A stretch of 24,486 nt of DNA from Opitutaceae bacterium (GCA_003168315.1 PMSP01000232.1:2400-26885), one strand, 5' to 3'. Counted from the first letter of the stretch, positions 5,885 through 17,268 are shown. The notes: a model not told the origin generated them from the letters alone. Program-made: numbers and translations.

Positions 5885-6198
5885 GCACCACTTACCATGA
5901 AAAACACGAGGCACCATCGGAGGCCGCTCGACTTACGAGCTACAATAAAACTCAAGGTGATCGACTTCGGAGCGCGCGAACCGGGATAGGGTTGTGCATA
6001 TTCGTTTTGGCGCTTGTGGCCGCCGTTCCATTGGTGTCCCAGCGGCTTCGGGGACATCCCTGGATTTTGTGGCCTACGATCTTGTGCGCGATACTGTGTG
6101 CGGGGAACGTTCTAGTTTACGCCAGATATTCCGCGCGTTTAAGAAAATTAGCTTTATTGGATACTGCGCCTAACCAAACAAGGGATCCGACGCCATAG
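5821..6198 (+). CDS. Cassette 9: small two-helix membrane protein; start inside attC8, or frameshifted from ATG 5897
   Basis: Open frame with two hydrophobic helices; ATG 5897 is out of frame by one base at an A5 run; stop inside attC9. Confidence 0.55.
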   Translation: MTLLVRGTNRAIDNADPFNVRRTTYHEKHEAPSEAARLTSYNKTQGDRLRSARTGIGLCIFVLALVAAVPLVSQRLRGHPWILWPTILCAILCAGNVLVYARYSARLRKLALLDTAPNQTRDPTP

Positions 6199-6222
6199 GC
6201 GCGGATCAATTCAAGGCCAGGT
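6168..6222 (+). repeat. attC site 9, short (55 bp) with R' core changed to GCC
   Basis: GCCTAAC-CAAACAAGGGATCCGACGCCATAGGCGCGGATCAATTCAAG-GCCAGGT; ~41-bp apical part absent. Confidence 0.8.
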
Positions 6223-6230
6223 CAAAAAAC

Positions 6231-6665
6231 ATGACTCAACTGCTACGATTCCCTAGTTCGGTTAAGCGAGATCCAGCCATTGAGACTTGGATGAGGCGGC
6301 ATGCCGGTGAGTTGGGCGTAATCGCGGAGCATTGGTTTGGAGTCATGCGTAAATGTGGAGAGGATGTGCGAGAACTATTGCATGATGGTCATCCGACGGC
6401 GTGCATAGCTGACGCGGCATTTGCATACGTCAATGCCTTCAGGGCTCACGTGAATGTTGGGTTTTTTCGAGGTGCTGAGATTGCCGATCCAAAGGGCATG
6501 TTGGAGGGCACTGGTAAGTTTATGCGTCATGTGAAGCTGAGACCGGGAGGTGACTTCGATACTACGGCTCTAATGAAGCTCATCGATACCGCGTACATCG
6601 ACATGAAGAAACGCGTGCAGGTGGAGTCACGTCGAAAGCATGAGACTTGTTCTGAACACGCCTAG
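6231..6665 (+). CDS. DUF1801 protein (second, divergent member)
   Basis: AFAYVNAF..HVN.GFF.GA...DP.G.LEGTGK.MRHVKL pattern. Confidence 0.85.
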   Translation: MTQLLRFPSSVKRDPAIETWMRRHAGELGVIAEHWFGVMRKCGEDVRELLHDGHPTACIADAAFAYVNAFRAHVNVGFFRGAEIADPKGMLEGTGKFMRHVKLRPGGDFDTTALMKLIDTAYIDMKKRVQVESRRKHETCSEHA

Positions 6666-7161
6666 ACTCTCGCTGCGACATCTTACGCCTGAAGACTCGG
6701 CCTTCTTGGTGGAGCTCATGAACGAGCCGCCGTATATTGCTAACATTGGTGATCGGGGTGTTCGCACCGTTGCGGATGCGATGCAGTACATCGAGGAAAA
6801 GTATGCGGCGAGCTATGTCCGCAATGGATTTGGGTTGTATCTCGTGGAGTTGACGGAAGGGAACGCACCAATAGGAATTTGTGGTTTGGTTAAGCGCGAG
6901 TCGCTTGACCATCCTGATCTAGGTTTTGCATATTTGCGTCGGTTTTGGTCCAGGGGCTATGCGACGGAAGCCGCGAGGGCGACTCTCAATTATGCTCGGG
7001 AATCATTGATGCTGCCTCATATCTACGGTTTGGTGTCTCCGACGAATACTAGGTCGATTCGTTTGTTGGAGCATTTGGGATTGCGCTATGTGCGATCGTT
7101 AGCGCTGGCAGGGCAGCCATCGGAGAGCCACTTGTATGGGACAGAACTCAAGGCCGTCTAA
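6640..7161 (+). CDS. GNAT N-acetyltransferase, RimJ/RimL type
   Basis: LNTPRL.LR; IG.CGL; DLGFAYL..FWSRGYATEAA; N.RSIRLLE.LG; stop TAA inside R'' GTCTAAC. Confidence 0.9.
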   Translation: MRLVLNTPRLSLRHLTPEDSAFLVELMNEPPYIANIGDRGVRTVADAMQYIEEKYAASYVRNGFGLYLVELTEGNAPIGICGLVKRESLDHPDLGFAYLRRFWSRGYATEAARATLNYARESLMLPHIYGLVSPTNTRSIRLLEHLGLRYVRSLALAGQPSESHLYGTELKAV

Positions 7162-7237
7162 CCAATCGACGTACCCGGGGATGAAAGGCGGAGGGGAAGC
7201 GCCCCCTATTCGGGTAATCGAGGCACAATCGTTGCGG
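7156..7237 (+). repeat. attC site 10, different sequence family (~82 bp)
   Basis: GTCTAAC-CAATC start; inverted arms TCGA..TACCCG / CGGGTA.TCGA; R'-like GTTGCGG at 7231-7237. Confidence 0.7.
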
Positions 7238-7244
7238 CAACAGA

Positions 7245-7763
7245 ATGAAGCATAAAGTATCGTCCTGCGGGGCAGCAGACCTGCGGATCATCCTCGAGAT
7301 CATAAACGATTCAGCGCGCGCTTACAAAGGTGTGATTCCAGCCGACCGGTGGCATGATCCTTACATGCCGATGGAGGAACTCGTTTCTGAAATTGGCAAA
7401 GGCGTGAAGTTTTACGGCTATTACATGGGTGACCGCCTGGAAGGCGTGATGGGCATCCAAGACGTGAAGGACGTCACTTTGATACGGCATGCTTATGTGC
7501 GCACGGAATGCCGCGGCCAAGGCATCGGTGGCAAGCTGCTGGGCCATCTAAGTCAGCCTAGCGGTCGACCGGTATTAGTTGGCACGTGGAAAACAGCGAC
7601 CTGGGCGATCCGTTTCTACGAAAAGAATGGATTTGCTCTTTTGGGTGATAACGAGAAGAACCGGCTTCTGACGTCCTACTGGACTGTGCCGGAACGCCAG
7701 ATGGAGGAATCCGTCGTTCTAGCCGATCAGCGCTGGCGTAATCTTGCCAACCAGCTTCATTAG
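7245..7763 (+). CDS. GNAT N-acetyltransferase
   Basis: IRHAYVR...RGQGIGGKLL; WAIRFYEKNGF. Confidence 0.9.
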   Translation: MKHKVSSCGAADLRIILEIINDSARAYKGVIPADRWHDPYMPMEELVSEIGKGVKFYGYYMGDRLEGVMGIQDVKDVTLIRHAYVRTECRGQGIGGKLLGHLSQPSGRPVLVGTWKTATWAIRFYEKNGFALLGDNEKNRLLTSYWTVPERQMEESVVLADQRWRNLANQLH

Positions 7764-7793
7764 TGTGAACCATTGAGACCCTAGCGAAATTAT

Positions 7794-8024
7794 ATGGGAA
7801 ATGTCACAGTCAGGTTTATCTTGTCAGTAGCGGTGGCAGTTTTCTACATTTCCTACGTTTACCATGGTTTAAAGACTGGCCGCATCCGCAGGTATTTTGG
7901 CGGTTGGGTCACAAGCAATGAGGCGCCTTTTTCATTTTATTCATCGCTCATCGTCAGTGCCGCCCTTGCTTTTCTCGCCCTGTATTTTGCCATCAAGAGC
8001 GGCCGTATGTTGATCATAAAATGA
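7794..8024 (+). CDS. Small hypothetical two-helix membrane protein
   Basis: 76 aa; two hydrophobic helices; ..E.PFSFY pattern; followed by attC11. Confidence 0.65.
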   Translation: MGNVTVRFILSVAVAVFYISYVYHGLKTGRIRRYFGGWVTSNEAPFSFYSSLIVSAALAFLALYFAIKSGRMLIIK

Positions 8025-8028
8025 GACT

Positions 8029-8124
8029 GCATTGCCAATCCCCGGATCCGACGAATGAGTCAGGCATGTCTTCAGCGGCGCAGGAGCCGCGCCATCATTT
8101 CCGCGGAGCGTTTCAACGCTAAGC
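8029..8124 (+). repeat. attC site 11, full length (96 bp) but both cores degenerate
   Basis: GCATTGC-CAATC-CCCGGATCCGACG...GCCGCGCCATC...TTTCAAC-GCTAAGC. Confidence 0.8.
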
Positions 8125-8183
8125 AACATGCGAAGGGGACTCCCCAGCTATCAAGGCCTTCCCAGGTGCTACTTTGGTAACCC

Positions 8184-8543
8184 ATGAAACTGCTCTCCCC
8201 AAAGCCGCTGCTCCGAGCTGAGGGCCTCGCGGTGCTGGTCGCAGCGTGTTTTCTCTATCATGCGCTGCACGGGTCATGGCTGATCTTCGCGGCGCTTTTT
8301 CTGACGCCAGACCTTTTCATGCTGGGCTACTTGTTTGGCGCCCGGGTGGGCGCCTGCAGTTATAACCTCGTTCACACCTACACGGCGCCGCTGGCGCTAG
8401 GATTTGTGGCGTATTTTGCGCCAACGACATCGCTGTTCGCCTTCTGTGTTCTTTGGACCGCTCATATCGGGTTTGATCGGTTTCTTGGCTACGGCCTGAA
8501 GTACGAGACTGGATTCAAGGATACGCACCTTCAAAGGGTTTAG
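8184..8543 (+). CDS. DUF4260 family membrane protein
   Basis: LLRAEGLAVL; PDL.MLGYL.G..VGA..YN..HTY; W.AHIGFDR.LGYGLKY..GFKDTHL. Confidence 0.9.
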   Translation: MKLLSPKPLLRAEGLAVLVAACFLYHALHGSWLIFAALFLTPDLFMLGYLFGARVGACSYNLVHTYTAPLALGFVAYFAPTTSLFAFCVLWTAHIGFDRFLGYGLKYETGFKDTHLQRV

Positions 8544-8562
8544 TCCGACGCCTGGTCAGCAT

Positions 8563-8590
8563 GCGTTGCCAATCCTTGGATCCGGCGCTG
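8563..8590 (+). repeat. attC relic, 5' part only
   Basis: GCGTTGC-CAATC-CTTGGATCCGGCGCT resembles GCCGAAC-CAATC-GACGGATCCGGCGCT of attC1. Confidence 0.65.
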
Positions 8591-8606
8591 GCCCGGAGGA
8601 AACCCC

Positions 8607-9083
8607 ATGCTCAATCTGCTGTTCCCCAAGCGCGTCGATAACGCATATCGCGGAAACAGGCTCGCCCCCTGGATCTTCGCGCTGGTCGTGCTTCTGAAGG
8701 CCTATGTCAGTCTATATGCGGTCTTCAACGGTCCCTTCATGGCGAGCTCCGGCGACGGGATCCCGCTTGGCACATTCCCGTCCGCCGGCACTCAGGCGGT
8801 GGTTTCCCTCTTCGCGCTCTGGGGGCTCGGCCACCTGATGATCTGCCTGTTGGGTCTGATGGTGCTGGCTCGGTATCGCGCCCTGATTCCCGCGATGTTC
8901 GCGCTGTTCCTTCTGGAACACCTGGGCAGAAGGCTGGTTTTTCACTTCTTGCCCTTCGCGAAGGGAGGAGCCGGCGGGGAAAGCATAGGACTCTCCCCCT
9001 TTCCGTACGGGTTCATCCTGATGATTGTCGTTGGCCTGGTGCTCTCGCTGAGGAGCCGGGGCAGTCCTCGGGCCAAGGAGTGA
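8607..9083 (+). CDS. Hypothetical multi-pass membrane protein
   Basis: GGAGG upstream; four hydrophobic helices. Confidence 0.8.
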   Translation: MLNLLFPKRVDNAYRGNRLAPWIFALVVLLKAYVSLYAVFNGPFMASSGDGIPLGTFPSAGTQAVVSLFALWGLGHLMICLLGLMVLARYRALIPAMFALFLLEHLGRRLVFHFLPFAKGGAGGESIGLSPFPYGFILMIVVGLVLSLRSRGSPRAKE

Positions 9084-9129
9084 CCTGGCTGGTGCCGGGT
9101 CAGTTGGATCGGGCATGGACGAACATCTT

Positions 9130-9151
9130 GCCTAGCCAATCAACGGAGCCG
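9130..9151 (+). repeat. attC relic, 5' part only
   Basis: GCCTAGC-CAATC-AACGGAGCCG. Confidence 0.6.
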
Positions 9152-9320
9152 CACGTTTGAGCTCGGGGTCTGGGACGATGATTCGACCGAATTCGTGGTG
9201 GAGGAGCGTTTTAGCGGCCTGGTTTTCGCGATGGCCAAGGGCTCGTTGCCCGATTTCAGGCCGATATTCGAAAGCTACGCCACGGACCTGAAGGGGGAGG
9301 CCGAGCGCGCCCGGCTGTGA
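9150..9320 (+). pseudogene. C-terminal fragment of an SRPBCC-like protein
   Basis: Hand translation RTFELGVWDDDSTEFVVEERFSGLVFAMAKGSLPDFRPIFESYATDLKGEAERARL*; no start; fused to an attC half. Confidence 0.6.
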
Positions 9321-9335
9321 GCTCAGGGATTAAGG

Positions 9336-9377
9336 GGGCGCATCCAATGCCGGGCTCAGGCCGTTTCAACATCCGGC
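9336..9377 (+). repeat. attC relic, 3' part
   Basis: GGCGCATCC...GGGCTCA...TTTCAACATCCGGC; the last 14 nt match TTTCAACGTTCGGC at 12 positions. Confidence 0.5.
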
Positions 9378-9387
9378 CTCCTTTTTT
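9358..9387 (+). terminator. Possible intrinsic terminator
   Basis: AGGCCG-N10-CGGCCT followed by CC and T6. Confidence 0.4.
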
Positions 9388-9460
9388 CTCTTTGCGTGCT
9401 TTTTGCGCTTCGGATCACTATATCCGGATACTCAGCTCCAACCAAGAATCAGGAGGATTT

Positions 9461-9736
9461 ATGCCAAAATACCTAATCGAACGCGAAATCGCGGGAGCTG
9501 GTAAGCTCACGCCGGAACAGCTGCAGGGCATCTCCCAGAAGTCCTGCGGCGTCCTCGAGAAGCTCGGGCCGAAGATCCAATGGGTCGAGAGCTACCTGAC
9601 CGATGACAAGATCTACTGCGTCTACATCGCGCCGGACGAGGCGATGGTGCGGGAGCACGCGAGGCTGGGCGGCTTCCCGGCCAACCGGGTATCCGAGATA
9701 AAGCGGATGATCGATCCGACCACCGCGACAGCCTGA
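9461..9736 (+). CDS. DUF4242 protein
   Basis: AGGAGG 9451-9456; MPKYLIEREI.GAG.L; IQWVESY.T.DK.YCVYIAPDE...REHA..GGFPANRVSE. Confidence 0.9.
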   Translation: MPKYLIEREIAGAGKLTPEQLQGISQKSCGVLEKLGPKIQWVESYLTDDKIYCVYIAPDEAMVREHARLGGFPANRVSEIKRMIDPTTATA

Positions 9737-9775
9737 GCCTCCTTCCGGGCTGGAATGGGGTTTACGCATGGGGAT

Positions 9776-9870
9776 GCCGGCGGCCAGCCGCAACCGGTGC
9801 TTGCCTCGGGCAGTCTTAAGCGGTGCAGTTGTCGCCCTATCCTCAGCGCGCATCATATCCATTTCCGGGA
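9776..9870 (+). repeat. Highly degenerate full-length attC relic
   Basis: 9790-9812 matches attC1 at 18/23; TTGTCGCCCTATCCTCAGCGCGCATCATATC matches the restored attC1 3' arm at 23/31; same spacing. Confidence 0.7.
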
Positions 9871-9882
9871 GTCCCACGGCCG

Positions 9883-10233
9883 ATGAATCGACGCGAAACA
9901 TTCAGGGAGTATTTCCGGCGTGCAAGGCAGGATTCCTCCGTCCGGGCGCATCTGCTGGAGAACGCGCGCTATTCCCGCTCGGCCGTGGGCTGGGTCGTCG
10001 CCCTGTTCGGAATCCTGGCGTTCTGGCAGACGGGCTACCAATGGCTGCGCCACGACATTTTGATTTCCCGTTCATCCGTCTTTTACACCCTCTGCTTCGT
10101 CGTCAACTTTCTCATCTACGACAAGTTCGGGGACCGCATCGCCGTCCTGGAATCGATCGGCGACCTGGGGGACCCGCAGCCGGGGCCGGGCGAGCCTCCC
10201 GCGGGACGGGAGCCGCGCCTTCCCCCGGCCTGA
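9883..10233 (+). CDS. Hypothetical membrane protein
   Basis: ATG 9883 follows the relic; two hydrophobic helices. Confidence 0.7.
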   Translation: MNRRETFREYFRRARQDSSVRAHLLENARYSRSAVGWVVALFGILAFWQTGYQWLRHDILISRSSVFYTLCFVVNFLIYDKFGDRIAVLESIGDLGDPQPGPGEPPAGREPRLPPA

Positions 10234-10243
10234 CGGACCCTTG

Positions 10244-10354
10244 GCCTGGCGAATCCGTCCCAGCGAACCGGGTCGAGTGCCATCGCCTCCGGCGCCGAGA
10301 GCGCTTCTCCCGGGCCGGAAAACGCGCATTTCCTAGGGTATTCCAACGCCAGCC
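10244..10354 (+). repeat. Probable attC relic
   Basis: Begins GCCTGGC-GAATC, ends TTCCAAC-GCCAGCC; fills the intergenic gap; next ATG 4 nt later. Confidence 0.45.
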
Positions 10355-10357
10355 AGC

Positions 10358-10876
10358 ATGAAGCGCATCTACTGGATCCTGGCGCTGGGCGCCCTTGCCG
10401 CGCTTGCCTGCCATTATTTCCTGCGGGATCCCTGGCGCGTTGAGCAGGAGCGCCTAGGTGCCAGGCTGTCCCGGGAAATATCGTCCGCAACAGAGGTGGA
10501 GATCTACTCGATCGACCCCGACCGGGGCGGGGGCGTCATCGGGAAGGCGGGCGTGCTGCCCACGAATGACCCGTTTGGGCGCAGGACTATCGTCGGCCGG
10601 TCGCTTGTCGCTCTCCCGGCGGAAATCAGGAGCCTGTCCGACTCGATTCGGGACGGCCTCGACCATGCCTCGATGATGGGCCCGGAGTGCTGGGAGCCCC
10701 GCCATGCCCTCCGCTACAGGACGCCCTCCGGCGACACGTTCGTCGTCGTGAGCTTCCACTGCGCCCACGGCTTCGTCGAGCAGGGCACGGCGCTGGAGTG
10801 GTTTGATATCCCGAGGTCGGCGGAGGCCCCCTGGGACGCGATCCTCCGTTCCCATGCCCTTTCCGTCGCCAGGTGA
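10358..10876 (+). CDS. Hypothetical exported or membrane-anchored protein
   Basis: MKRIYWILALGALAALAC N-terminus; C.EPRHA..Y...F.C..G pattern. Confidence 0.75.
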   Translation: MKRIYWILALGALAALACHYFLRDPWRVEQERLGARLSREISSATEVEIYSIDPDRGGGVIGKAGVLPTNDPFGRRTIVGRSLVALPAEIRSLSDSIRDGLDHASMMGPECWEPRHALRYRTPSGDTFVVVSFHCAHGFVEQGTALEWFDIPRSAEAPWDAILRSHALSVAR

Positions 10877-11352
10877 TTGTCCCCATGATCCAGCCAGGGA
10901 TTAAGATCACAAGGGCGCTCCCGGGCGACGCTGCCGAGCTCTCGGCCATCGCCTACAGCGCGAAGGCCTACTGGGGTTATCCCGAGAGCTGGCTTCGCCA
11001 GTGGGACGAGACGCTGACGATCACGCCCGGCTATGTCCTCGGGAACCCGACCTTTGCCGCCGCCTCGGGAGCGCGCATTGCCGGCTTCTGCTCGCTCGTG
11101 CTGCGCCCGGGGGAGGCGTTCCTCGACCACCTGTGGGTCCTTCCGTCCGCCATGGGGGTCGGGATTGGGAGCGCGCTCTTCACATTTGCCGAGGGGGTCG
11201 CCCGGTCGGGAGGGGCGCAGACCCTCAGGGTCGAGAGCGATCCCCACGCTGAGGAGTTCTACATCCGCATGGGGGCCAGCCGGTATGGGCAGGTCGCGGC
11301 GCCGATGGAGGGGAGCGAGCGGTTCCTGCCGCTCCTTGAGAAGCGGCTTTGA
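10873..11352 (+). CDS. GNAT N-acetyltransferase (start may be ATG 10885)
   Basis: AKAYWGY; LDHLWVLP.AMG.GIG.ALF; SDPHAE.FY..MG. Confidence 0.9.
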   Translation: MIVPMIQPGIKITRALPGDAAELSAIAYSAKAYWGYPESWLRQWDETLTITPGYVLGNPTFAAASGARIAGFCSLVLRPGEAFLDHLWVLPSAMGVGIGSALFTFAEGVARSGGAQTLRVESDPHAEEFYIRMGASRYGQVAAPMEGSERFLPLLEKRL

Positions 11353-11431
11353 GCGTAGCAAGGAATCCGTCCCGAGCCATGGGCCTCGCCGCCGGGGAAC
11401 GCGCGGCCGCGAAAGCGTTCCAACCCTGAGC
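11353..11431 (+). repeat. Probable attC relic
   Basis: 3' end CCGCGAAAGCGTTCCAACCCTGAGC matches the end of attC11 at 20/25 with one gap; GCGTAGC right after the GNAT stop; ATG 4 nt after. Confidence 0.55.
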
Positions 11432-11434
11432 GCC

Positions 11435-11917
11435 ATGGAAACCCTCCTCCTGTCCACGCTTCCCCTCCTGTGCATCCTTGCCTCGCTCGCCTACGCGGCC
11501 GTCGTCGGGACGCGGGTCTACAGGGCGACCGGGTTCATCTCCGTCCTCGGCGTCGCGGCGGGCCTTCTGGGGGCATACGTGGGACGGTTCCTCGACCGCT
11601 TCATCCCGCTCCCGCGGGAAGTCGACGACTGGGTGAACTACCGCGGGCTGGTCGATTACCAAGTGAAGGCCACCGGCGAGCGCTACCTTGCCATCCTGTC
11701 GGTGGAGGCGGCGGTTCTCTTCCTCCTCGCCTCGGCTTTCACGTTCCTCGCGGTCAACATGATCCGCAGGGACGCCCTGGGCCAGTCGCGCGGCGACAAG
11801 GGGCCGAGCCGGTTTGCGGTCCTGGGCGGGCTGTTCATCCTCGCCTTATGCCTCACCTACCGCGGCAAGCTGGCCGCATGCCTCGCGTTCCTGCTGGCGA
11901 AGGCAGGCCTGCTGTAG
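11435..11917 (+). CDS. Hypothetical multi-pass membrane protein
   Basis: METLLLSTLPLL...; four hydrophobic helices. Confidence 0.75.
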   Translation: METLLLSTLPLLCILASLAYAAVVGTRVYRATGFISVLGVAAGLLGAYVGRFLDRFIPLPREVDDWVNYRGLVDYQVKATGERYLAILSVEAAVLFLLASAFTFLAVNMIRRDALGQSRGDKGPSRFAVLGGLFILALCLTYRGKLAACLAFLLAKAGLL

Positions 11918-11924
11918 GGGCTGC

Positions 11925-12590
11925 GTGAAGGCAATCCTCGCTGTTTTCGACAACGACGGGACCCTCTGCGACACGCAGGAGGTCGAGGGCGCTTGCTACG
12001 CGCGCGCGGTCGAGAGCGTCACCGGGAAGTTCCTCTCGTCTTTGGACTGGGGTTTGCACGCGGAGCCCACGAGTTCGGGCATTGCCCGCTCGCTTCTTGC
12101 CGGGGACTCGGACGCGGCGGGAAAGGAGGCGGCGATCGAGCGTGAATTCACGCGCCTCCTCGGGGAGGAGAGGGCGGCGTTCCCCGGCGACTTCTCGCCG
12201 GTCCGCGGGGCTGTCGCCTTCCTTGGGCGCCTGGCGGGTGAGGGGATCTGCCCGGTGGCGATTGCCACCGGTTGCTTTGCCGCGAGCGCGCGTTACAAGC
12301 TCGAGTGCTGCGGGATCGACCTCGGCGCGTACCCCCACGCGACGTCGAGCGACACGCCCCGGAGGTCGGACATCATCCGGCTGGCGGCATCGCGCGCCGG
12401 ATTCGACATCGGGTCGGTGGTGTATTTTGGCGACGCGCCCTGGGACGTTCGCGCGTGCGCGGCGCTCGGAATCCCGATGATCGGGATAGGGCGCCGTCAC
12501 GAGAGGCTGAGGGAGCTCGGGATCCGGCACGCCTTCCGCGACTACTCTGACCCGGACGCCATCATCGGCGCCCTTCGCGCCGGCGGCTAG
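11925..12590 (+). CDS. HAD-family hydrolase
   Basis: FDNDGTL motif I; AIATG motif II; YFGDAPWD motif IV; GTG 11925 inferred start. Confidence 0.9.
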   Translation: MKAILAVFDNDGTLCDTQEVEGACYARAVESVTGKFLSSLDWGLHAEPTSSGIARSLLAGDSDAAGKEAAIEREFTRLLGEERAAFPGDFSPVRGAVAFLGRLAGEGICPVAIATGCFAASARYKLECCGIDLGAYPHATSSDTPRRSDIIRLAASRAGFDIGSVVYFGDAPWDVRACAALGIPMIGIGRRHERLRELGIRHAFRDYSDPDAIIGALRAGG

Positions 12591-13636
12591 CGCTTGCCCC
12601 GGCCCAGGATATCCGTGGTCCACCGCCGATGGGGACCGGACAGGGCGACGGAGCCCAGCGACTCCAGTCGGACCCAGACGAGGCCCGGGCGGTCCTTCCC
12701 GGGGGGAGGCGCGGCCGCGTGGATCGACTCCGTGATCCGGAACCGCGTGATCGACCGGCTCTTCCTGGCGACAAGGGGACCCTGCGAGACCTGGTCGGGA
12801 TCGAGGCCGGCCTGCTCGGCCGTCGGGAGCTCGTGAAGGTCGGCCAGGCGGCGGGCGCCCTTCGGGTTCAGGTGCAGGAGGAGCGCCCCGTCCCGCTCGC
12901 ACCACACGCGGACGACCGTCCGCCGCTCGGTCGGCCTCGCCTCCAGCCTCGGATAGGCCTCGGGGTCGCCCGCCTTTCCCGCCGCGCAGAAATCCCCCAC
13001 GGGGCAGACGAGGCAGGCGGGCCTGCGCCTGAGGCAGACGGTCGCCCCGAGCTCCATCATCGCCTGGTTGTGGTCGCCGGGTGCGGAGGGGTTGAGGAGC
13101 TCCTGGGCGAGCGGTGCGAAGGCCCGCGACGCCGTCCCGCCGTCCCGGTGGGGCGTCCCGTCGCGCGTGAGCCTGGCGAGGATGCGCACGACGTTCCCGT
13201 CGACGCAGGCGAGCGGCTCGCCGAAGGCGATGCTCGCTATGGCGGCGGCCGTGTAGGGGCCGACGCCGGGAAGCTCCTCCCACCCGGCTGCCGAGGTCGG
13301 CAGCGCGCGCCCGGCGACCTCGCGCGCGAGCCTGTGGAGGTTGCGCGCGCGGGAATAGTACCCGAGGCCCTCCCAGAGCCTGAGGACGGCCTCCTCTCGG
13401 GCGGACGCCAGCGCGGCGAAGCCGGGGAGCGCCTCCATCCAGCGCGCGAAATAGGGGAGCACCGTCGCGACCTGGGTCTGCTGGAGCATGAACTCGCTCA
13501 CCACCGTCCCGTAGGCGGAGGGCGCCTCGCGCCACGGCAGCCTGCGCCGGGACGCCCGGTACCATGCCAGGAGCGCCTTCCGGAACCCCGCGCGCCGGGC
13601 CGCGAGGGCCCGCCTGCCGGAAGTTTTGCGTGTCAT
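12587..13636 (-). CDS. mutY: A/G-specific adenine glycosylase
   Basis: WY....R.LPWR; VSEFMLQQTQV; WEGLGYYSRARNLH; LPGVG.YTA; DGNV.R; C-X6-C-X2-C-X5-C iron-sulfur motif. Confidence 0.96.
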   Translation of the reverse strand: MTRKTSGRRALAARRAGFRKALLAWYRASRRRLPWREAPSAYGTVVSEFMLQQTQVATVLPYFARWMEALPGFAALASAREEAVLRLWEGLGYYSRARNLHRLAREVAGRALPTSAAGWEELPGVGPYTAAAIASIAFGEPLACVDGNVVRILARLTRDGTPHRDGGTASRAFAPLAQELLNPSAPGDHNQAMMELGATVCLRRRPACLVCPVGDFCAAGKAGDPEAYPRLEARPTERRTVVRVWCERDGALLLHLNPKGARRLADLHELPTAEQAGLDPDQVSQGPLVARKSRSITRFRITESIHAAAPPPGKDRPGLVWVRLESLGSVALSGPHRRWTTDILGRGKR

Positions 13637-13666
13637 TGGCGGCAATTTTGTGACTATGGGTCCCTC

Positions 13667-14674
13667 ATGCCCAAGCGCGGCCAGGACGACGAGGAAAAAC
13701 CCAAGAAGCTGAGCACCTACACGCTCAAGCTCGACGACGGGCAGATGGAGAGGCTGCGCGTGATCCTGAGCGGGCGGGGCTGGGAGGCCTTCGATGTCGC
13801 CTACGCGAGGTACGCCTTCAAGGGGCGCGACTGCAACGTCACGGCCTACGAGAGCGGCAAGCTGGTCGTTGCGGGCAAGGGCACCGAGGAATTCGTGACG
13901 ATGACGCTTGAGCCCGACATCACGATGGCGCCCAAGCTCGGCTACGACGAGGTGCACCATCCCGACTGGTTCGAGCTCCACGCGGGCCTGGACGAGAGCG
14001 GCAAGGGCGACCTCTTCGGGCCGGTGGTGGCCGCGACCGTCATCGCCGACCGGGCGGCGATCGAGGGCTGGATCAAGGAGGGGGTCAAGGACTCGAAGAA
14101 GATCGCCGAGTCGCAGATCATCCGGCTGGACAAGCTGATCCGGGGGACGCACGGCGTCGCGGTCGCGGTCTGCCTCTGCGGGATGCCGAAGTACAACCTC
14201 ATCATGTCGCGGCCCCACGCGAACCTTAACCGGCTCCTCGCGTGGCAGCACGCGACGGCGCTCGCGCAGGCGCTCGCGAGGAAGAAGGCCCCCCGCGGGC
14301 TCCTCGACCAGTTCACGAAGCAGCCGCTCGTCCAGCGGGAGCTGAAGAAGATGGGGGTCGTGGACTTCGACCTGCAGATGCGGACCAAGGCCGAGGAGGA
14401 CCCGGTGGTCGCGGCGGCGTCGGTCGTCGCGCGCGCCGAGTATGTCCGCCAGATCAACGTCCTCTCGCGCGACTTCGGGGGCCCGCTCCAGAAGGGGGCG
14501 GGGCCGCTCGTCAAGGAGCAGGCGGCGCAGATCATCGAGCGGTTCGGGGCCCGCGCCCTCGGCAACTTCGCCAAGCTCCATTTCCGGACGGCGTACGAGG
14601 TCGTCCTGGCCGCGGGCAAGCTGGACGAGCTGCCGCTCCCGGAGCCCCGGGCCCGGATGGAGTGGGGCGGGTAG
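13667..14674 (+). CDS. rnhC: Ribonuclease HIII
   Basis: N-terminal TBP-like region (VTAYESGKLVVAGK); GLDESGKGDLFGP; GVKDSKK; VAAASVVAR. Confidence 0.92.
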   Translation: MPKRGQDDEEKPKKLSTYTLKLDDGQMERLRVILSGRGWEAFDVAYARYAFKGRDCNVTAYESGKLVVAGKGTEEFVTMTLEPDITMAPKLGYDEVHHPDWFELHAGLDESGKGDLFGPVVAATVIADRAAIEGWIKEGVKDSKKIAESQIIRLDKLIRGTHGVAVAVCLCGMPKYNLIMSRPHANLNRLLAWQHATALAQALARKKAPRGLLDQFTKQPLVQRELKKMGVVDFDLQMRTKAEEDPVVAAASVVARAEYVRQINVLSRDFGGPLQKGAGPLVKEQAAQIIERFGARALGNFAKLHFRTAYEVVLAAGKLDELPLPEPRARMEWGG

Positions 14675-14693
14675 GGGCCCGGGGACGCAAGCG

Positions 14694-15455
14694 ATGCCGA
14701 AGCGCAGACAGCTCCGGAGCTTCGACCTGAAGAAGATCGAGGGCTTCGAAAACCTGATCGGGGTCGACGAGGTCGGCAGGGGTGCCCTTGCCGGCCCGGT
14801 CGTCGCCGGCGCGGTCCTCGTTACCCGCGCCTTCCTCGAGGGGCGCTGGGCCTGCGTCAAGGCCGGCCGGGTCAACGACTCCAAGCTCCTCTCGGCCGCC
14901 GACCGCGACTCGCTCTGGCTCGAGTTCGAGTCGCTCGCGGCCCAGGGCCACATCCACGCCCACTTCGGCTCGGCGAGCGTCGAGGAGATCGAGCAGCACA
15001 ACATCCTCGGCGCGACGAAGCTCGCGATGCGCCGCGCGATGGAGGGGATCTATCCCCCGGCCGCGTTCCGCCGGAACGAGGAGCCCGACCTCTTCTCGTC
15101 GGTGGCGGAGCGCGACTCGTTCGTCCCGATCGTCTCCTGCCGGGTGCTGGTGGACGGCCTGCATCTCAGGGGGTTCCCGTACCCGCACACCCCGATCGTG
15201 AACGGTGACGCGCGCAGCCTCTGCATCGCGATGGGCTCCATCATCGCCAAGGTCGCGCGGGACCGGATGATGGCGGAACTCGACGCGAGGCACCCGGGCT
15301 ACGGCTTCGCGAAGCACAAGGGCTACGGGACGGACGACCACCGCGAGGCGGTCGTGCGGCTCGGAAGGTCCCCGATCCACAGGGAGATGTTCCTTCGCAA
15401 GCTCATGGCGCAGCGCCCCGACCCGAACCAGATGGATTTCCTTCCGGACCGTTGA
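14694..15455 (+). CDS. rnhB: Ribonuclease HII
   Basis: GVDEVGRGALAGPVVA; NDSKLL; LVDG; GDARS..IA..SIIAKV.RD; YGFAKHKGYGT. Confidence 0.95.
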   Translation: MPKRRQLRSFDLKKIEGFENLIGVDEVGRGALAGPVVAGAVLVTRAFLEGRWACVKAGRVNDSKLLSAADRDSLWLEFESLAAQGHIHAHFGSASVEEIEQHNILGATKLAMRRAMEGIYPPAAFRRNEEPDLFSSVAERDSFVPIVSCRVLVDGLHLRGFPYPHTPIVNGDARSLCIAMGSIIAKVARDRMMAELDARHPGYGFAKHKGYGTDDHREAVVRLGRSPIHREMFLRKLMAQRPDPNQMDFLPDR

Positions 15456-15489
15456 CCCCCGGGGCCTGCGCGGCCATCAAGGGCCCCAG

Positions 15490-16659
15490 ATGCCAGGCAA
15501 GAAACACACCTCGCTCGACCGCGTCCTGGGGCGGCTCGACACGCTGGACCCCGTCAACATGGCGAACCTGGTCCAGCGTCTCGCGAAGGAGCGCTCCCTC
15601 TTCGAGCAGATCTTCAAGACCCTGCAGGAGGGCGTCCTCGTCATCTCGACGGCGGGGATAATCGAGTACGCCAACGACGCCGCCCAGCGGCTGATCGGCC
15701 TCTCCGGCGAGGGCCTCTCCGGGCAGACCCTCTGGCGGCTGATCCCGGGGCTGCGGCCGACGCTGGGAGACGACGCGAACGCCTCCGCCAGCATGGTGGC
15801 CCGCGAATTCGAGCTCACCTACCCGGAGCCCCGGACGATCCGGCTCTACATGGTCCCCTTCCGCGATGAGGACGCCGGCGGCGAGCGCCGCCACGCCGTC
15901 ATCCTGGCCGACGTGACGCACGACAGGCTGACGACGGCGCAGCGGATCGAGGACGAGCGGACCTCCTCCATCCTGCTCCTCGCGGCGGGAGTCGCCCACG
16001 AGCTCGGCAACCCGCTCAATTCCCTGACGATCCACCTGCAGCTGATCGCGAGGAAGCTGAAGAAGCTCGGGCGCTCGCCCGAGGCCGAGTCCCTGTCCGA
16101 GAGCGTTGACGTGTGCCGGGAGGAGGTCGCGCGGCTGGACGGGATCATCACGCACTACCTCGAGGCGATCCGCCCGAGCCCGCCGGACCTTTCGGAGACG
16201 AACCTGGCCGACATCCTCGCGGAGGTCCTCAAGTTCCAGAAGAGGGAGTTCTCGGACCGGGGCATTGTGGTCGAGGCCGAGACGCCCTACGCCCTCCCGG
16301 CGGTCATGGCCGACCGAAACCAGCTGAAGCAGGTGTTCTTCAACATAACGAAGAACGCGATGGAATCGATGCAGCCGGGCGGCAGGCTGATGATCAAGTC
16401 GAGGGCCGACGACGACTCGGTCTACCTCCTCTTCGGGGACAGCGGGTCCGGGATCCGGCAGGAGGACCTGGTCAGGCTCTTCGAGCCCTACCACACGACG
16501 AAGGCGGGCGGCCACGGGCTCGGCCTGATGATCGTCCAGCGCATCATGCGCGCGCACGGCGGGCAGGTGGGCGTCGAGAGCCGCGAGGGCACGGGGACCG
16601 TGGTCACCCTCCAGTTCCCGCGGAAGGACCGGCGGGTGCGGATGCTCGGCGGGGGCTGA
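15490..16659 (+). CDS. Cytoplasmic PAS-domain sensor histidine kinase
   Basis: PAS (EGVLVI...I.YAN); H-box AGVAHELGNPL; N-box LKQVFFNI..NA; D.G.GI; F.P..TTK; G.GLGL; no TM helix seen. Confidence 0.93.
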   Translation: MPGKKHTSLDRVLGRLDTLDPVNMANLVQRLAKERSLFEQIFKTLQEGVLVISTAGIIEYANDAAQRLIGLSGEGLSGQTLWRLIPGLRPTLGDDANASASMVAREFELTYPEPRTIRLYMVPFRDEDAGGERRHAVILADVTHDRLTTAQRIEDERTSSILLLAAGVAHELGNPLNSLTIHLQLIARKLKKLGRSPEAESLSESVDVCREEVARLDGIITHYLEAIRPSPPDLSETNLADILAEVLKFQKREFSDRGIVVEAETPYALPAVMADRNQLKQVFFNITKNAMESMQPGGRLMIKSRADDDSVYLLFGDSGSGIRQEDLVRLFEPYHTTKAGGHGLGLMIVQRIMRAHGGQVGVESREGTGTVVTLQFPRKDRRVRMLGGG

Positions 16660-16665
16660 CGCCCG

Positions 16666-17268
16666 CTAGCTGCCCGGGGGCGCCGGCGCGAGGGCCGGGT
16701 CCGGGGCGATGATCTTCACGGAGAAGGTCTTGCTCTCCCTGACCGTCCCCAGCTTGAGCGTCACCTTGAAGTCCATGGCGTCGGCGGTCACGCCGAGCTG
16801 GGACACCATCGGGGTCGGCTCGCCGGTCTCGCCGGGCTTGAGGGCCAGCATCTCGGGGTCTATCGCGAAGTTCCCCATGTCGGAGTCGAAGTCGAGCATC
16901 GTGACCTTGACGGCCTCGGGGCTCGTGTTCGTGAGGATCAGGTGGAGCGTCACGGGCGGCAGCGGGCTTCCGACCAAGGTCTTGTTCTCATTCTCGGTGT
17001 ACGAGCTGTAGGTGTAGTCCCCCTTTTCCCGGCCGCCCTTGCGCAGGCCGCGGCCGATGCCGCGGCTGAGCGTCACCTTGACGCTCACCCGGCCGCCGAA
17101 GAAGGCCTGGGTCCCCTCCATCGCCACCGGCCTCTCGCCGGAGATGACGCCGTTTGTCAGCTCGTCGTTCTGGGTGTGCAGGCAACCTGCGACCCCGAGC
17201 GCAAGGAGGAGGCCGGCGGCGGCGAGCGCCCGCGTTAAGCGATTAGCAGGGGAGGTGTTATGAAGCAT
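16666..17268 (-). CDS. Hypothetical lipoprotein
   Basis: Signal peptide ending LALGVAG-C; ATG 17268 inferred start. Confidence 0.75.
   Translation of the reverse strand: MLHNTSPANRLTRALAAAGLLLALGVAGCLHTQNDELTNGVISGERPVAMEGTQAFFGGRVSVKVTLSRGIGRGLRKGGREKGDYTYSSYTENENKTLVGSPLPPVTLHLILTNTSPEAVKVTMLDFDSDMGNFAIDPEMLALKPGETGEPTPMVSQLGVTADAMDFKVTLKLGTVRESKTFSVKIIAPDPALAPAPPGS

Follow-up and report, generated by a model that had tools for sequence, protein, structure and literature searches.

The window analysed here is a stretch of 24,486 nucleotides from an Opitutaceae bacterium (bases 2400–26885 of the 28.8-kb scaffold C293 of a metagenome-assembled genome, MAG). It carries an integron cassette array on its plus strand, and to the right the recombination sites (attC) of this array become damaged and then disappear. 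We consider this region, positions 6168–12590 of the window (the fossil zone), to be, with a probability of roughly 0.8, the distal and oldest part of a sedentary chromosomal integron common to a genus of Opitutaceae-like Verrucomicrobiota from peat. The observations concerned are the defective attC sites, a gradient in the GC content of third codon positions (GC3), a bias in the substitutions within the defective sites, the presence of the whole region as an insertion relative to an empty site in related genomes, decay of the same cassettes that varies between species, and purifying selection on the genes. A sequence-only reading had already placed the old end of the array here, and this is upheld: in this genome and in five relatives, site quality decreases and GC3 increases in the direction of the conserved backbone.

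The attC sites form one family of imperfect palindromes of 96–97 nt on the plus strand. Seven full canonical sites lie within 2489–5885, another is split by an insertion sequence (IS), and further copies occur in the 2.4 kb that precede the window. The consensus starts with GCCTAAC, ends with GTTAGGC and is predicted to form a hairpin of 29 pairs, five of which show compensatory changes. Each site sits behind a short, unrelated plus-strand open reading frame (ORF), and the cassette ORFs include a DUF1801 protein, a pyrimidine-dimer glycosylase, a DUF4440 protein and a Phd/ParE toxin-antitoxin pair. The array is thus an integron cassette array, with hairpin-forming palindromes bearing R'' RYYYAAC and R' GTTRRRY cores, one per ORF and in uniform orientation. 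Because of this orientation, attI and the integrase gene intI are expected to the left.

Sites were scored with a covariance model (CM) and a sequence-only model built from the seven canonical attCs (Infernal), with an nhmmer profile from ten attC sites, and with ungapped position weight matrices (PWMs) comprising the first and last 26 positions (5' box and 3' box). An empirical null was obtained from the remainder of the MAG (3.43 Mb of single-strand sequence). It contained 14 nhmmer matches of at least 5.8 bits, with a maximum of about 10.9, and at this threshold six matches were observed in 5886–12590, where 0.03 are expected. A 5' box score of at least 17 occurred two times in 5.07 million null positions and a score of at least 19 did not occur. 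Seven sites in the fossil zone (6168, 7156, 8029, 8563, 9130, 9775 and 10171) are far above this null, and all are on the cassette strand. Six of them lie behind the ends of ORFs, the exception being 10171, which is within the 3' end of ORF 9883–10233. The best attC match outside C293 is at 2953–2975 of contig C150 (nhmmer 10.9 bits, model positions 72–94); together with a single 3' box match of 32 bits, also outside C293, it suggests that a stray attC end is present at another place in the genome.

To the right of 5885, every site of the family is defective, and the damage takes three forms: (i) point changes in the AAC and GTT triplets, (ii) deletion of the centre of the hairpin, and (iii) loss of the 3' half with adjoining sequence. 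In the 6168 site, model positions 1–26 are fused to positions 68–97, and R' is GCCAGGT in place of GTTAGGC. Deletion of the hairpin centre has arisen two times independently, here and in the related genome G048. The 7156 site retains its R''-L'' end, and what follows at 7178–7244 is unrelated to the family. The 8029 site is full length with mutated cores (R'' GCATTGC, R' GCTAAGC). In the 8563 site the 3' two-thirds are gone and the next ORF begins at 8607, and the 9130 half site is joined to a 52-codon 3' gene fragment at 9162–9320. The 9775 relic, located 40 nt past the stop codon of the SCO4226-like gene, has a mutated core and no hairpin. The last relic is centred on 10171–10223. A genus-level hidden Markov model (HMM), obtained by iterative nhmmer over all loci retrieved from relatives, gives 10185–10223 a score of 11.7 bits, above the highest null score of 10.2 (3.43 Mb); the structure model places 10189–10222 at an E value of 0.03, and tblastn ties the relic to an attC relic at 3922–3996 of genome G007. 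The last ~20 codons of ORF 9883–10233 are encoded by 10171–10223, so a decayed recombination site now supplies the C-terminal tail of a protein.

The pattern of site scores is a sharp step between 5885 and 6168 followed by a fading tail. A polar decay gradient had been proposed; its core observation stands, but the site scores do not slope smoothly. The Phd/ParE cassette (5231–5885; Pfam Phd and ParE) exactly borders the canonical and the defective sites, and may mark how far deletions can be tolerated. With the CM, no match beyond 8125 reached E < 0.01.

To the right of 5885, no site unites intact AAC and GTT triplets with paired R and L boxes in a stable hairpin, and the mutated sites are probably dead for recombination. 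A different view is that the divergent sites are working attCs of other types and that the whole array is still mobile; such sites could work because the integrase reads structure more than sequence. In keeping with this, the 6168 site retains a tight, compact hairpin (z −4.0, as compared with −1.4 to −4.1 for the canonical sites), and the segment 7156–7244 has AAC and GTT triplets at its two ends. However, the 3' half is missing at 8563 and 9130, the GTT of R' is gone at 6168 and 8029, and 8029, 9775 and 7156–7244 fold no better than shuffled controls (z −1.0, +1.7 and −0.1, respectively). Furthermore, the orthologous sites are of the family type in other species, including that at 7156, which had been described as foreign: the same cassette has a family-type attC elsewhere. 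We regard a still mobile array as highly improbable.

The series of decaying sites in the sequence-only reading contained nine members, of which 6168, 7156, 8029, 8563, 9130 and 9775 (given as 9776) exceed the genome null. The other three, 9336, 10244 and 11353, are at background level (null frequency of such scores ~1.5e-3 per position or higher), so that scoring against background was passed by most of the sites only. At 9336/9338 the 5' box score is −2.0, and the best nearby 3' box, at 9353, has a marginal score of 6.0 (4.5e-5 per position). The 5' box score is −9.5 at 10244, where the candidate was misplaced, the real relic being just to the left (10171/10185–10223), and −2.3 at 11353, a value found in the null at 1.6e-3 per position. 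The iterative nhmmer search over all loci converged without any of the three. The spacers at 10244 and 11353 are nevertheless related to each other because they share an exact rare 11-mer, GAATCCGTCCC, which has two copies in the window and 5 in the MAG. An Rfam scan of the window matched zero families.

The change in base composition is more regular than that in site scores. GC3 of the cassettes to the left of 5885 is 0.55 ± 0.06 and trendless. Starting with the ORF that ends at 6198 and finishing with the HAD hydrolase gene, the values for 14 successive genes are 0.52, 0.52, 0.58, 0.61, 0.55, 0.67, 0.78, 0.81, 0.83, 0.80, 0.84, 0.86, 0.90 and 0.87 (Spearman rho with position 0.97, p 1e-8), and the backbone genes have 0.90–0.97. 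An increase that had been noted by eye is therefore confirmed, as is, for a general tendency, the claim that the cores of the sites change toward GC. Measured against the conserved consensus columns, the defective sites have changed from AT to GC at 23 of 107 AT sites (0.215) and from GC to AT at 14 of 177 GC sites (0.079), corresponding to an odds ratio of 3.2 (p 0.0017) and a rate ratio of 2.7. The implied equilibrium GC content is 0.73, near the values of 0.70–0.77 in most sampled stretches of backbone. The canonical sites are free of the AT>GC bias.

The gradient could instead reflect the origin of the genes and not their time of residence, the distal cassettes having come from high-GC donors or from the host. 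In keeping with this, the SCO4226-like gene is widespread across the genus at high GC. Against this, when homologous modules are paired so that one copy comes from an attC-bearing part and its partner from the attC-free part of another species' locus, the attC-free copy is the richer in GC for 15 of 16 pairs (mean +0.10, Wilcoxon 6e-5). Within the DUF1801 family, GC3 in three genomes is 0.54 and 0.69 in attC-bearing parts and 0.90 in an attC-free zone; in a GNAT family it ranges from 0.58 to 0.78 across genomes. The same AT>GC bias, with its equilibrium of 0.73, is present in the attC relics, which are non-coding. Because attC-free copies are GC-richer within families, amelioration of resident genes is favoured over capture of genes that were already GC-rich, and origin as the cause of the gradient is very unlikely. 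The change is directional, toward host composition, and independent of gene family.

The genes of the fossil zone are short and unrelated, and every one of them lies on the cassette strand. Two groups can be distinguished. (i) The genes at 6231–9083, with defective sites, have GC3 values rising from 0.52 to 0.78 and ratios of nonsynonymous to synonymous substitution rates (dN/dS) of 0.13–0.16. (ii) The genes at 9461–12590, without a usable attC, have GC3 values of 0.80–0.90, at or near host composition, and dN/dS of 0.18–0.44. As these ratios, 0.13–0.44 overall, show, the genes are kept by purifying selection. Synonymous divergence (dS) from homologues is 0.48–0.98, with one pair saturated, and equals or exceeds that of the backbone (0.40–0.67). 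No paralogues of the distal genes were found elsewhere in the 64%-complete MAG.

Comparison of related genomes defines the limits of the element. The attC family is present in 18 of 24 sampled genomes of the same genus, as compared with 1 of 16 from other families of the order; it is lineage-wide, homogeneous and at a fixed locus. When DNA 6100–16700 was compared with 38 genus genomes, conserved DNA was found to begin at ~12570–12620 in 37 of them, a point that corresponds to the 3' end of the minus-strand endonuclease III-like gene (endoIII); to the left of it nothing is conserved in place among the 38. In seven genomes (G012, G021, G023, G024, G052, G042 and G002) the segment designated backbone-2 adjoins endoIII and there is no integron; in G012 backbone-2 ends 44–52 nt from endoIII. 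Relative to this empty site, all of the window as far as 12590 is therefore inserted DNA. In this MAG, backbone-2 is on contig C204, which ends ~950 nt before the junction. In three other genomes (G019, G053 and G015) a full-length, minus-strand intI comes next after backbone-2, with plus-strand attCs behind this intI in G053 and G015, whereas the contig of G019 stops just past intI. These intI genes score 240–260 bits (cut-off 265). The expectation that intI should lie to the left of the window thus agrees with its position beside backbone-2 in relatives, although the gene itself is unseen in this MAG.

Arrays of the family run into the same endoIII gene in six relatives (G019, G006, G007, G053, G048 and G041). 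Taken together, the comparisons support a layout that probably reads backbone-2, intI (minus strand), attI, cassettes (plus strand), fossil zone and endoIII. The polarity of decay recurs: the rank correlation (rho) of attC score, by the genus HMM, with position is −0.90 in G019, −0.85 in G007, −0.88 in both G053 and G048, −0.54 in G041 and −0.55 here. An attC-free gap of 0.5–9 kb is located next to the backbone in all six loci, and GC content climbs in the same way.

Five genomes whose endoIII site is empty contain intI elsewhere (G012:C3, G023:C9, G024:C101, G021:C23 and G054:C92; 66–73% DNA identity); in G024 and G021, attCs that belong to this family accompany the gene. Because of these copies, the integron platform has either moved or been acquired twice within the genus. 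In G017 (C23, locus L052, oriented 4777–11861), 7 kb of cassette-sized modules lie between backbone-2 and endoIII with no intI or attC. These modules are common to the distal zones of other species, and the G017 zone represents either the remains of an integron that has lost its platform or a pre-integron state.

Relatives also bear on which genes of the fossil zone have been cassettes. The 6640 GNAT gene has canonical attCs on both sides in G007 (contig C60). Its downstream attC is of the family type and intact in G007 C60 and G019 C51, lacks its centre and has GTT changed to GCT in G048, is degenerate in G053, and is reduced to 22 nt here. In G041, the GNAT gene is followed directly by the DUF4260 gene, and the two genes that intervene in the window are missing, a cassette-sized difference. 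Modules of the attC-free zone of G007 occur as attC-bounded cassettes in G006, G048 and G053. The SCO4226-like gene is found as a module of 275–310 nt in eight other genomes (loci L069–L076) with flanks that share nothing; these copies are mostly without a recognisable attC but in G007 an attC relic follows, which suggests orphan ex-cassettes scattered outside the integron. GNAT homologues occur in the distal zones of G007 and G053, and the homologue of the 10873 GNAT gene in G007 begins 8 nt past an attC relic. The flanking relics thus support the view that the genes up to ~10.2 kb are probably ex-cassettes, and homologues that are attC-flanked or single-gene modules elsewhere support the same for 6231, 6640, 8184, 9461 and 10873. 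The last four genes were probably cassettes as well.

The extension of the ex-cassettes to ~11.9 kb in the sequence-only reading is covered by the insertion, which reaches 12590 in the comparison with the seven empty sites, but the genes at 10358 and 11435 and the HAD gene are assigned from position, strand and size. Of the genes at 9.4–11.9 kb whose homologues were to be sought as cassettes elsewhere, 9461 is a single-gene module and the homologue of 10873 stands behind a relic. The decayed array might extend only to ~10.25 kb, the high-GC genes at 10358–12590 being those of an older variable island or of the host and never having been cassettes; the integron would then merely have inserted next to them. 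The lack of any attC trace to the right of 10251, the existence of the G017 zone and the operon-like overlap of 10358 and 10873 fit such a boundary. However, these genes are within the insertion relative to the seven empty-site genomes, are short and all on the cassette strand, and continue the climb in GC3 from 0.84 to 0.90; one of them is the 10873 GNAT gene with its relic-associated homologue, and the modules of such zones are attC-flanked cassettes in other species. We consider the shorter array unlikely, although less so than a gradient caused by gene origin.

Assembly does not account for the transition from array to backbone. The MAG (2.57 Mb, 410 contigs, 66.7% GC, 64% complete) is fragmented and contains 242 NN scaffold joins, three of which are within attC sites just to the left of the window (C293 positions 1724, 2141 and 2398), so that fusion of a low-GC array to an unrelated high-GC contig, by assembly or binning, has to be considered. 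The window, however, is a single N-free piece bounded at either end by NN joins, the right one at 26886. The stretch 5700–12900 is present near-verbatim in 18 metagenome runs (peat, permafrost and soil; many studies), and Logan contigs of four other peat and permafrost runs match it with ~100% identity and even depth, bridging 5700–9847, 7659–10450, 10434–12900 and 8845–12900 and thereby every transition. Because of these bridging contigs from independent runs and the recurrence of the array-backbone join in six other genomes, a chimera is excluded for practical purposes, and the probability of an artefact is negligible. The host is assigned to Opitutaceae-like Verrucomicrobiota because the top outside match to a backbone protein is from a Cephaloticoccus sp. 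MAG (80% identity), followed by other Opitutia.

Several apparent features were rejected. A short attC spanning the start of the window is an artefact of the scaffold join (NN at contig positions 2398–2399), and a half site at contig position 2120 is likewise an assembly join. Odd contig ends or short pieces at 6192, 6516–6546 and 9605–9639 are repeats or homologues from other organisms and not variants of the locus. In one permafrost run (X15), a strain variant at 11523–12863 has ~30 differences to the right of 11.5 kb, as compared with 6 over 5700–11500, a pattern that may point to a recombination breakpoint or to the array part having been swept recently.

Two observations concern the array to the left of 5885. 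An element of the IS110/IS1111 family at 593–2064 (transposase ORF 611–1726; Pfam Transposase_20 and DEDD_Tnp_IS110) splits the attC at 520 into 520–592 and 2065–2090. The cassette at 4087–4551, with its flanking attCs, has 91% DNA identity to G019:C40:1402–1863, and its dS of 0.13, as compared with 0.40–0.44 for the backbone, indicates a recent exchange between species of the genus. The coordinates of all features are given in Table 1.

Table 1. Recombination sites, genes and spacers of the array and the fossil zone, in window coordinates.
Feature	Position	Strand	Evidence and remarks
Canonical attC sites (starts)	520 (IS-split), 2489, 2879, 3339, 3952, 4553, 5078, 5789	+	
Last canonical attC	5789–5885	+	CM 87 bits; behind Phd/ParE cassette; R'' GCCGATC, R' GTTAGGC intact
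Shortened attC	6168–6223	+	5' box 31.4, 3' box 18.7; CM 34.4 bits, E 3e-8
DUF1801	6231–6665	+	Pfam
GNAT	6640–7161	+	Pfam
Truncated attC of GNAT cassette 6640–7161	7156–7177	+	first 22 nt (R''-L'') only; PWM 21.4
GNAT	7245–7763	+	Pfam
Small membrane ORF	7794–8024	+	
Full-length attC, both cores mutated	8029–8125	+	CM 72 bits; HMMs 54–62 bits
DUF4260	8184–8543	+	Pfam
attC 5' half	8563–8593	+	PWM 17.1; HMM 5.8–8.1 bits, model positions 6–32
Membrane ORF	8607–9083	+	
attC 5' half	9130–9159	+	PWM 19.1; HMM 9.4–9.9 bits, model positions 1–29; R'' GCCTAGC
SCO4226-like	9461–9736	+	Pfam
Heavily diverged full-length attC relic	9775–9871	+	27.1 bits, E 8.5e-8; 23.9 bits, genome-wide E 7e-5; genus HMM 31–34 bits
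ORF	9883–10233	+	
attC relic, central hairpin part 10171–10223	10155–10251	+	Infernal 10.9 bits, E ~0.01; genus HMM 11.7 bits
Spacer	10234–10357	+	unlike attC by profile; shares 11-mer and end motifs with 11353 spacer
Secreted ORF	10358–10876	+	
GNAT	10873–11352	+	Pfam
Spacer	11353–11434	+	background score; related to spacer 10234–10357
Membrane ORF	11435–11917	+	
HAD hydrolase	11925–12590	+	Pfam
Endonuclease III / HhH-GPD-like (endoIII)	12587–13600	−	Pfam; genus conservation; empty-site genomes; first conserved backbone gene, right limit of insertion

A possible course of events leading to this arrangement is as follows. New cassettes would enter at attI, on the left, and those with a working attC would be excised, reshuffled or swapped between species; because such cassettes turn over, the proximal part would consist of young, low-GC cassettes with uniform sites. 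Once an attC has been damaged, by a change in the GTT or AAC core, by deletion of the hairpin centre or by loss of the 3' half, excision of its cassette would no longer be possible, and the cassette would be displaced from intI by later insertions. Being stuck and pushed outward, immobile cassettes would pile up at the far end roughly by age, so that the order along the array probably reflects age. Dead sites would drift neutrally under the GC-biased substitution of the host until they become unrecognisable, while the genes would be retained by purifying selection as their silent positions ameliorate to host composition.

A number of points weigh against an old, immobile end of an integron. 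The site scores are non-monotonic, that of 8029 exceeding those of 6168 and 7156, and the loss of recombination at the mutated sites is deduced from their sequence. No attC trace was detected to the right of 10251 by CM, nhmmer, PWM or genus HMM, and the case for cassette ancestry of 10358, 11435 and the HAD gene consists of position in the insertion, strand, size and composition. The 16 pairs of the GC test are not fully independent, since some gene families contribute several. Some distal genes have a dS of 0.74–0.98, as compared with 0.40–0.67 for the backbone, and may not be simple vertical orthologues. No intI match above the cut-off was found in this MAG, which is 64% complete, contains neither intI nor attI in its assembly and has a contig that ends inside the array; the 28.8-kb contig has two or more attCs and no intI match, and it breaks inside the array, with the intI of relatives being proximal. 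Finally, the G017 zone could be a pre-integron state and not a remnant.

Sedentary chromosomal integrons include the Vibrio superintegron and the Xanthomonas ilvD-linked integron. The element described here shares with such integrons a homogeneous, lineage-specific family of hairpin-forming attCs with RYYYAAC and GTTRRRY cores; small, unrelated ORFs that share one orientation, a toxin-antitoxin cassette among them; and, in relatives, a divergent intI at one end of a locus that is fixed within the clade. It differs in its verrucomicrobial host and in that the far third of the insertion is without a usable attC and at host composition. In its degenerate attCs, the absence of an integrase in view and genes that are becoming fixed, it resembles clusters of attC sites lacking an integrase (CALIN), but here an active-looking array passes without interruption into the decayed part, relatives have an intact intI at the same locus, and the process is resolved by site and by gene. 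An operational definition of integrons has been provided with IntegronFinder (Cury et al. 2016, PMC4889954), and in that work very degenerate attCs were considered a possible intermediate on the way to the stable genomic retention of captured genes.

Silent positions and non-coding relics in the fossil zone drift directionally to the base composition of the host, as in amelioration. The amelioration of horizontally acquired genes was reportedly described by Lawrence and Ochman; in the present case, unlike the classic one, it is laid out along a single array in which position is a proxy for residence time. We found no report of a positional series of attC decay or of a GC3 gradient along an array in the literature that is searchable as full text. 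The system is known and the outcome is expected in theory; in the present case it is resolved in quantitative terms and against comparative controls.

The fate of captured cassettes, and the share of chromosomal genes that are of cassette origin, have been largely a matter of conjecture. Here, one 6-kb stretch contains a stepwise record: sites that are intact, then sites with mutated cores or deleted hairpins, half sites, faint relics and finally no site at all, as GC3 rises from 0.52 to 0.90, and the empty site and the other stages of decay in sister species make residence time, decay rate and selection measurable. Finders based on attC would thus probably underestimate the size of integron-derived regions. 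Arrays of this kind could tentatively be viewed, at somewhat less than even odds, as an age-ordered conveyor with a sieve, and perhaps as a general, unquantified route by which cassettes without an attC are turned into fixed host genes. If so, position, attC score and GC3 together would provide a readable time axis of capture and domestication, and the attC-free zones of 0.5–9 kb beside arrays would be systematically overlooked ex-cassettes.

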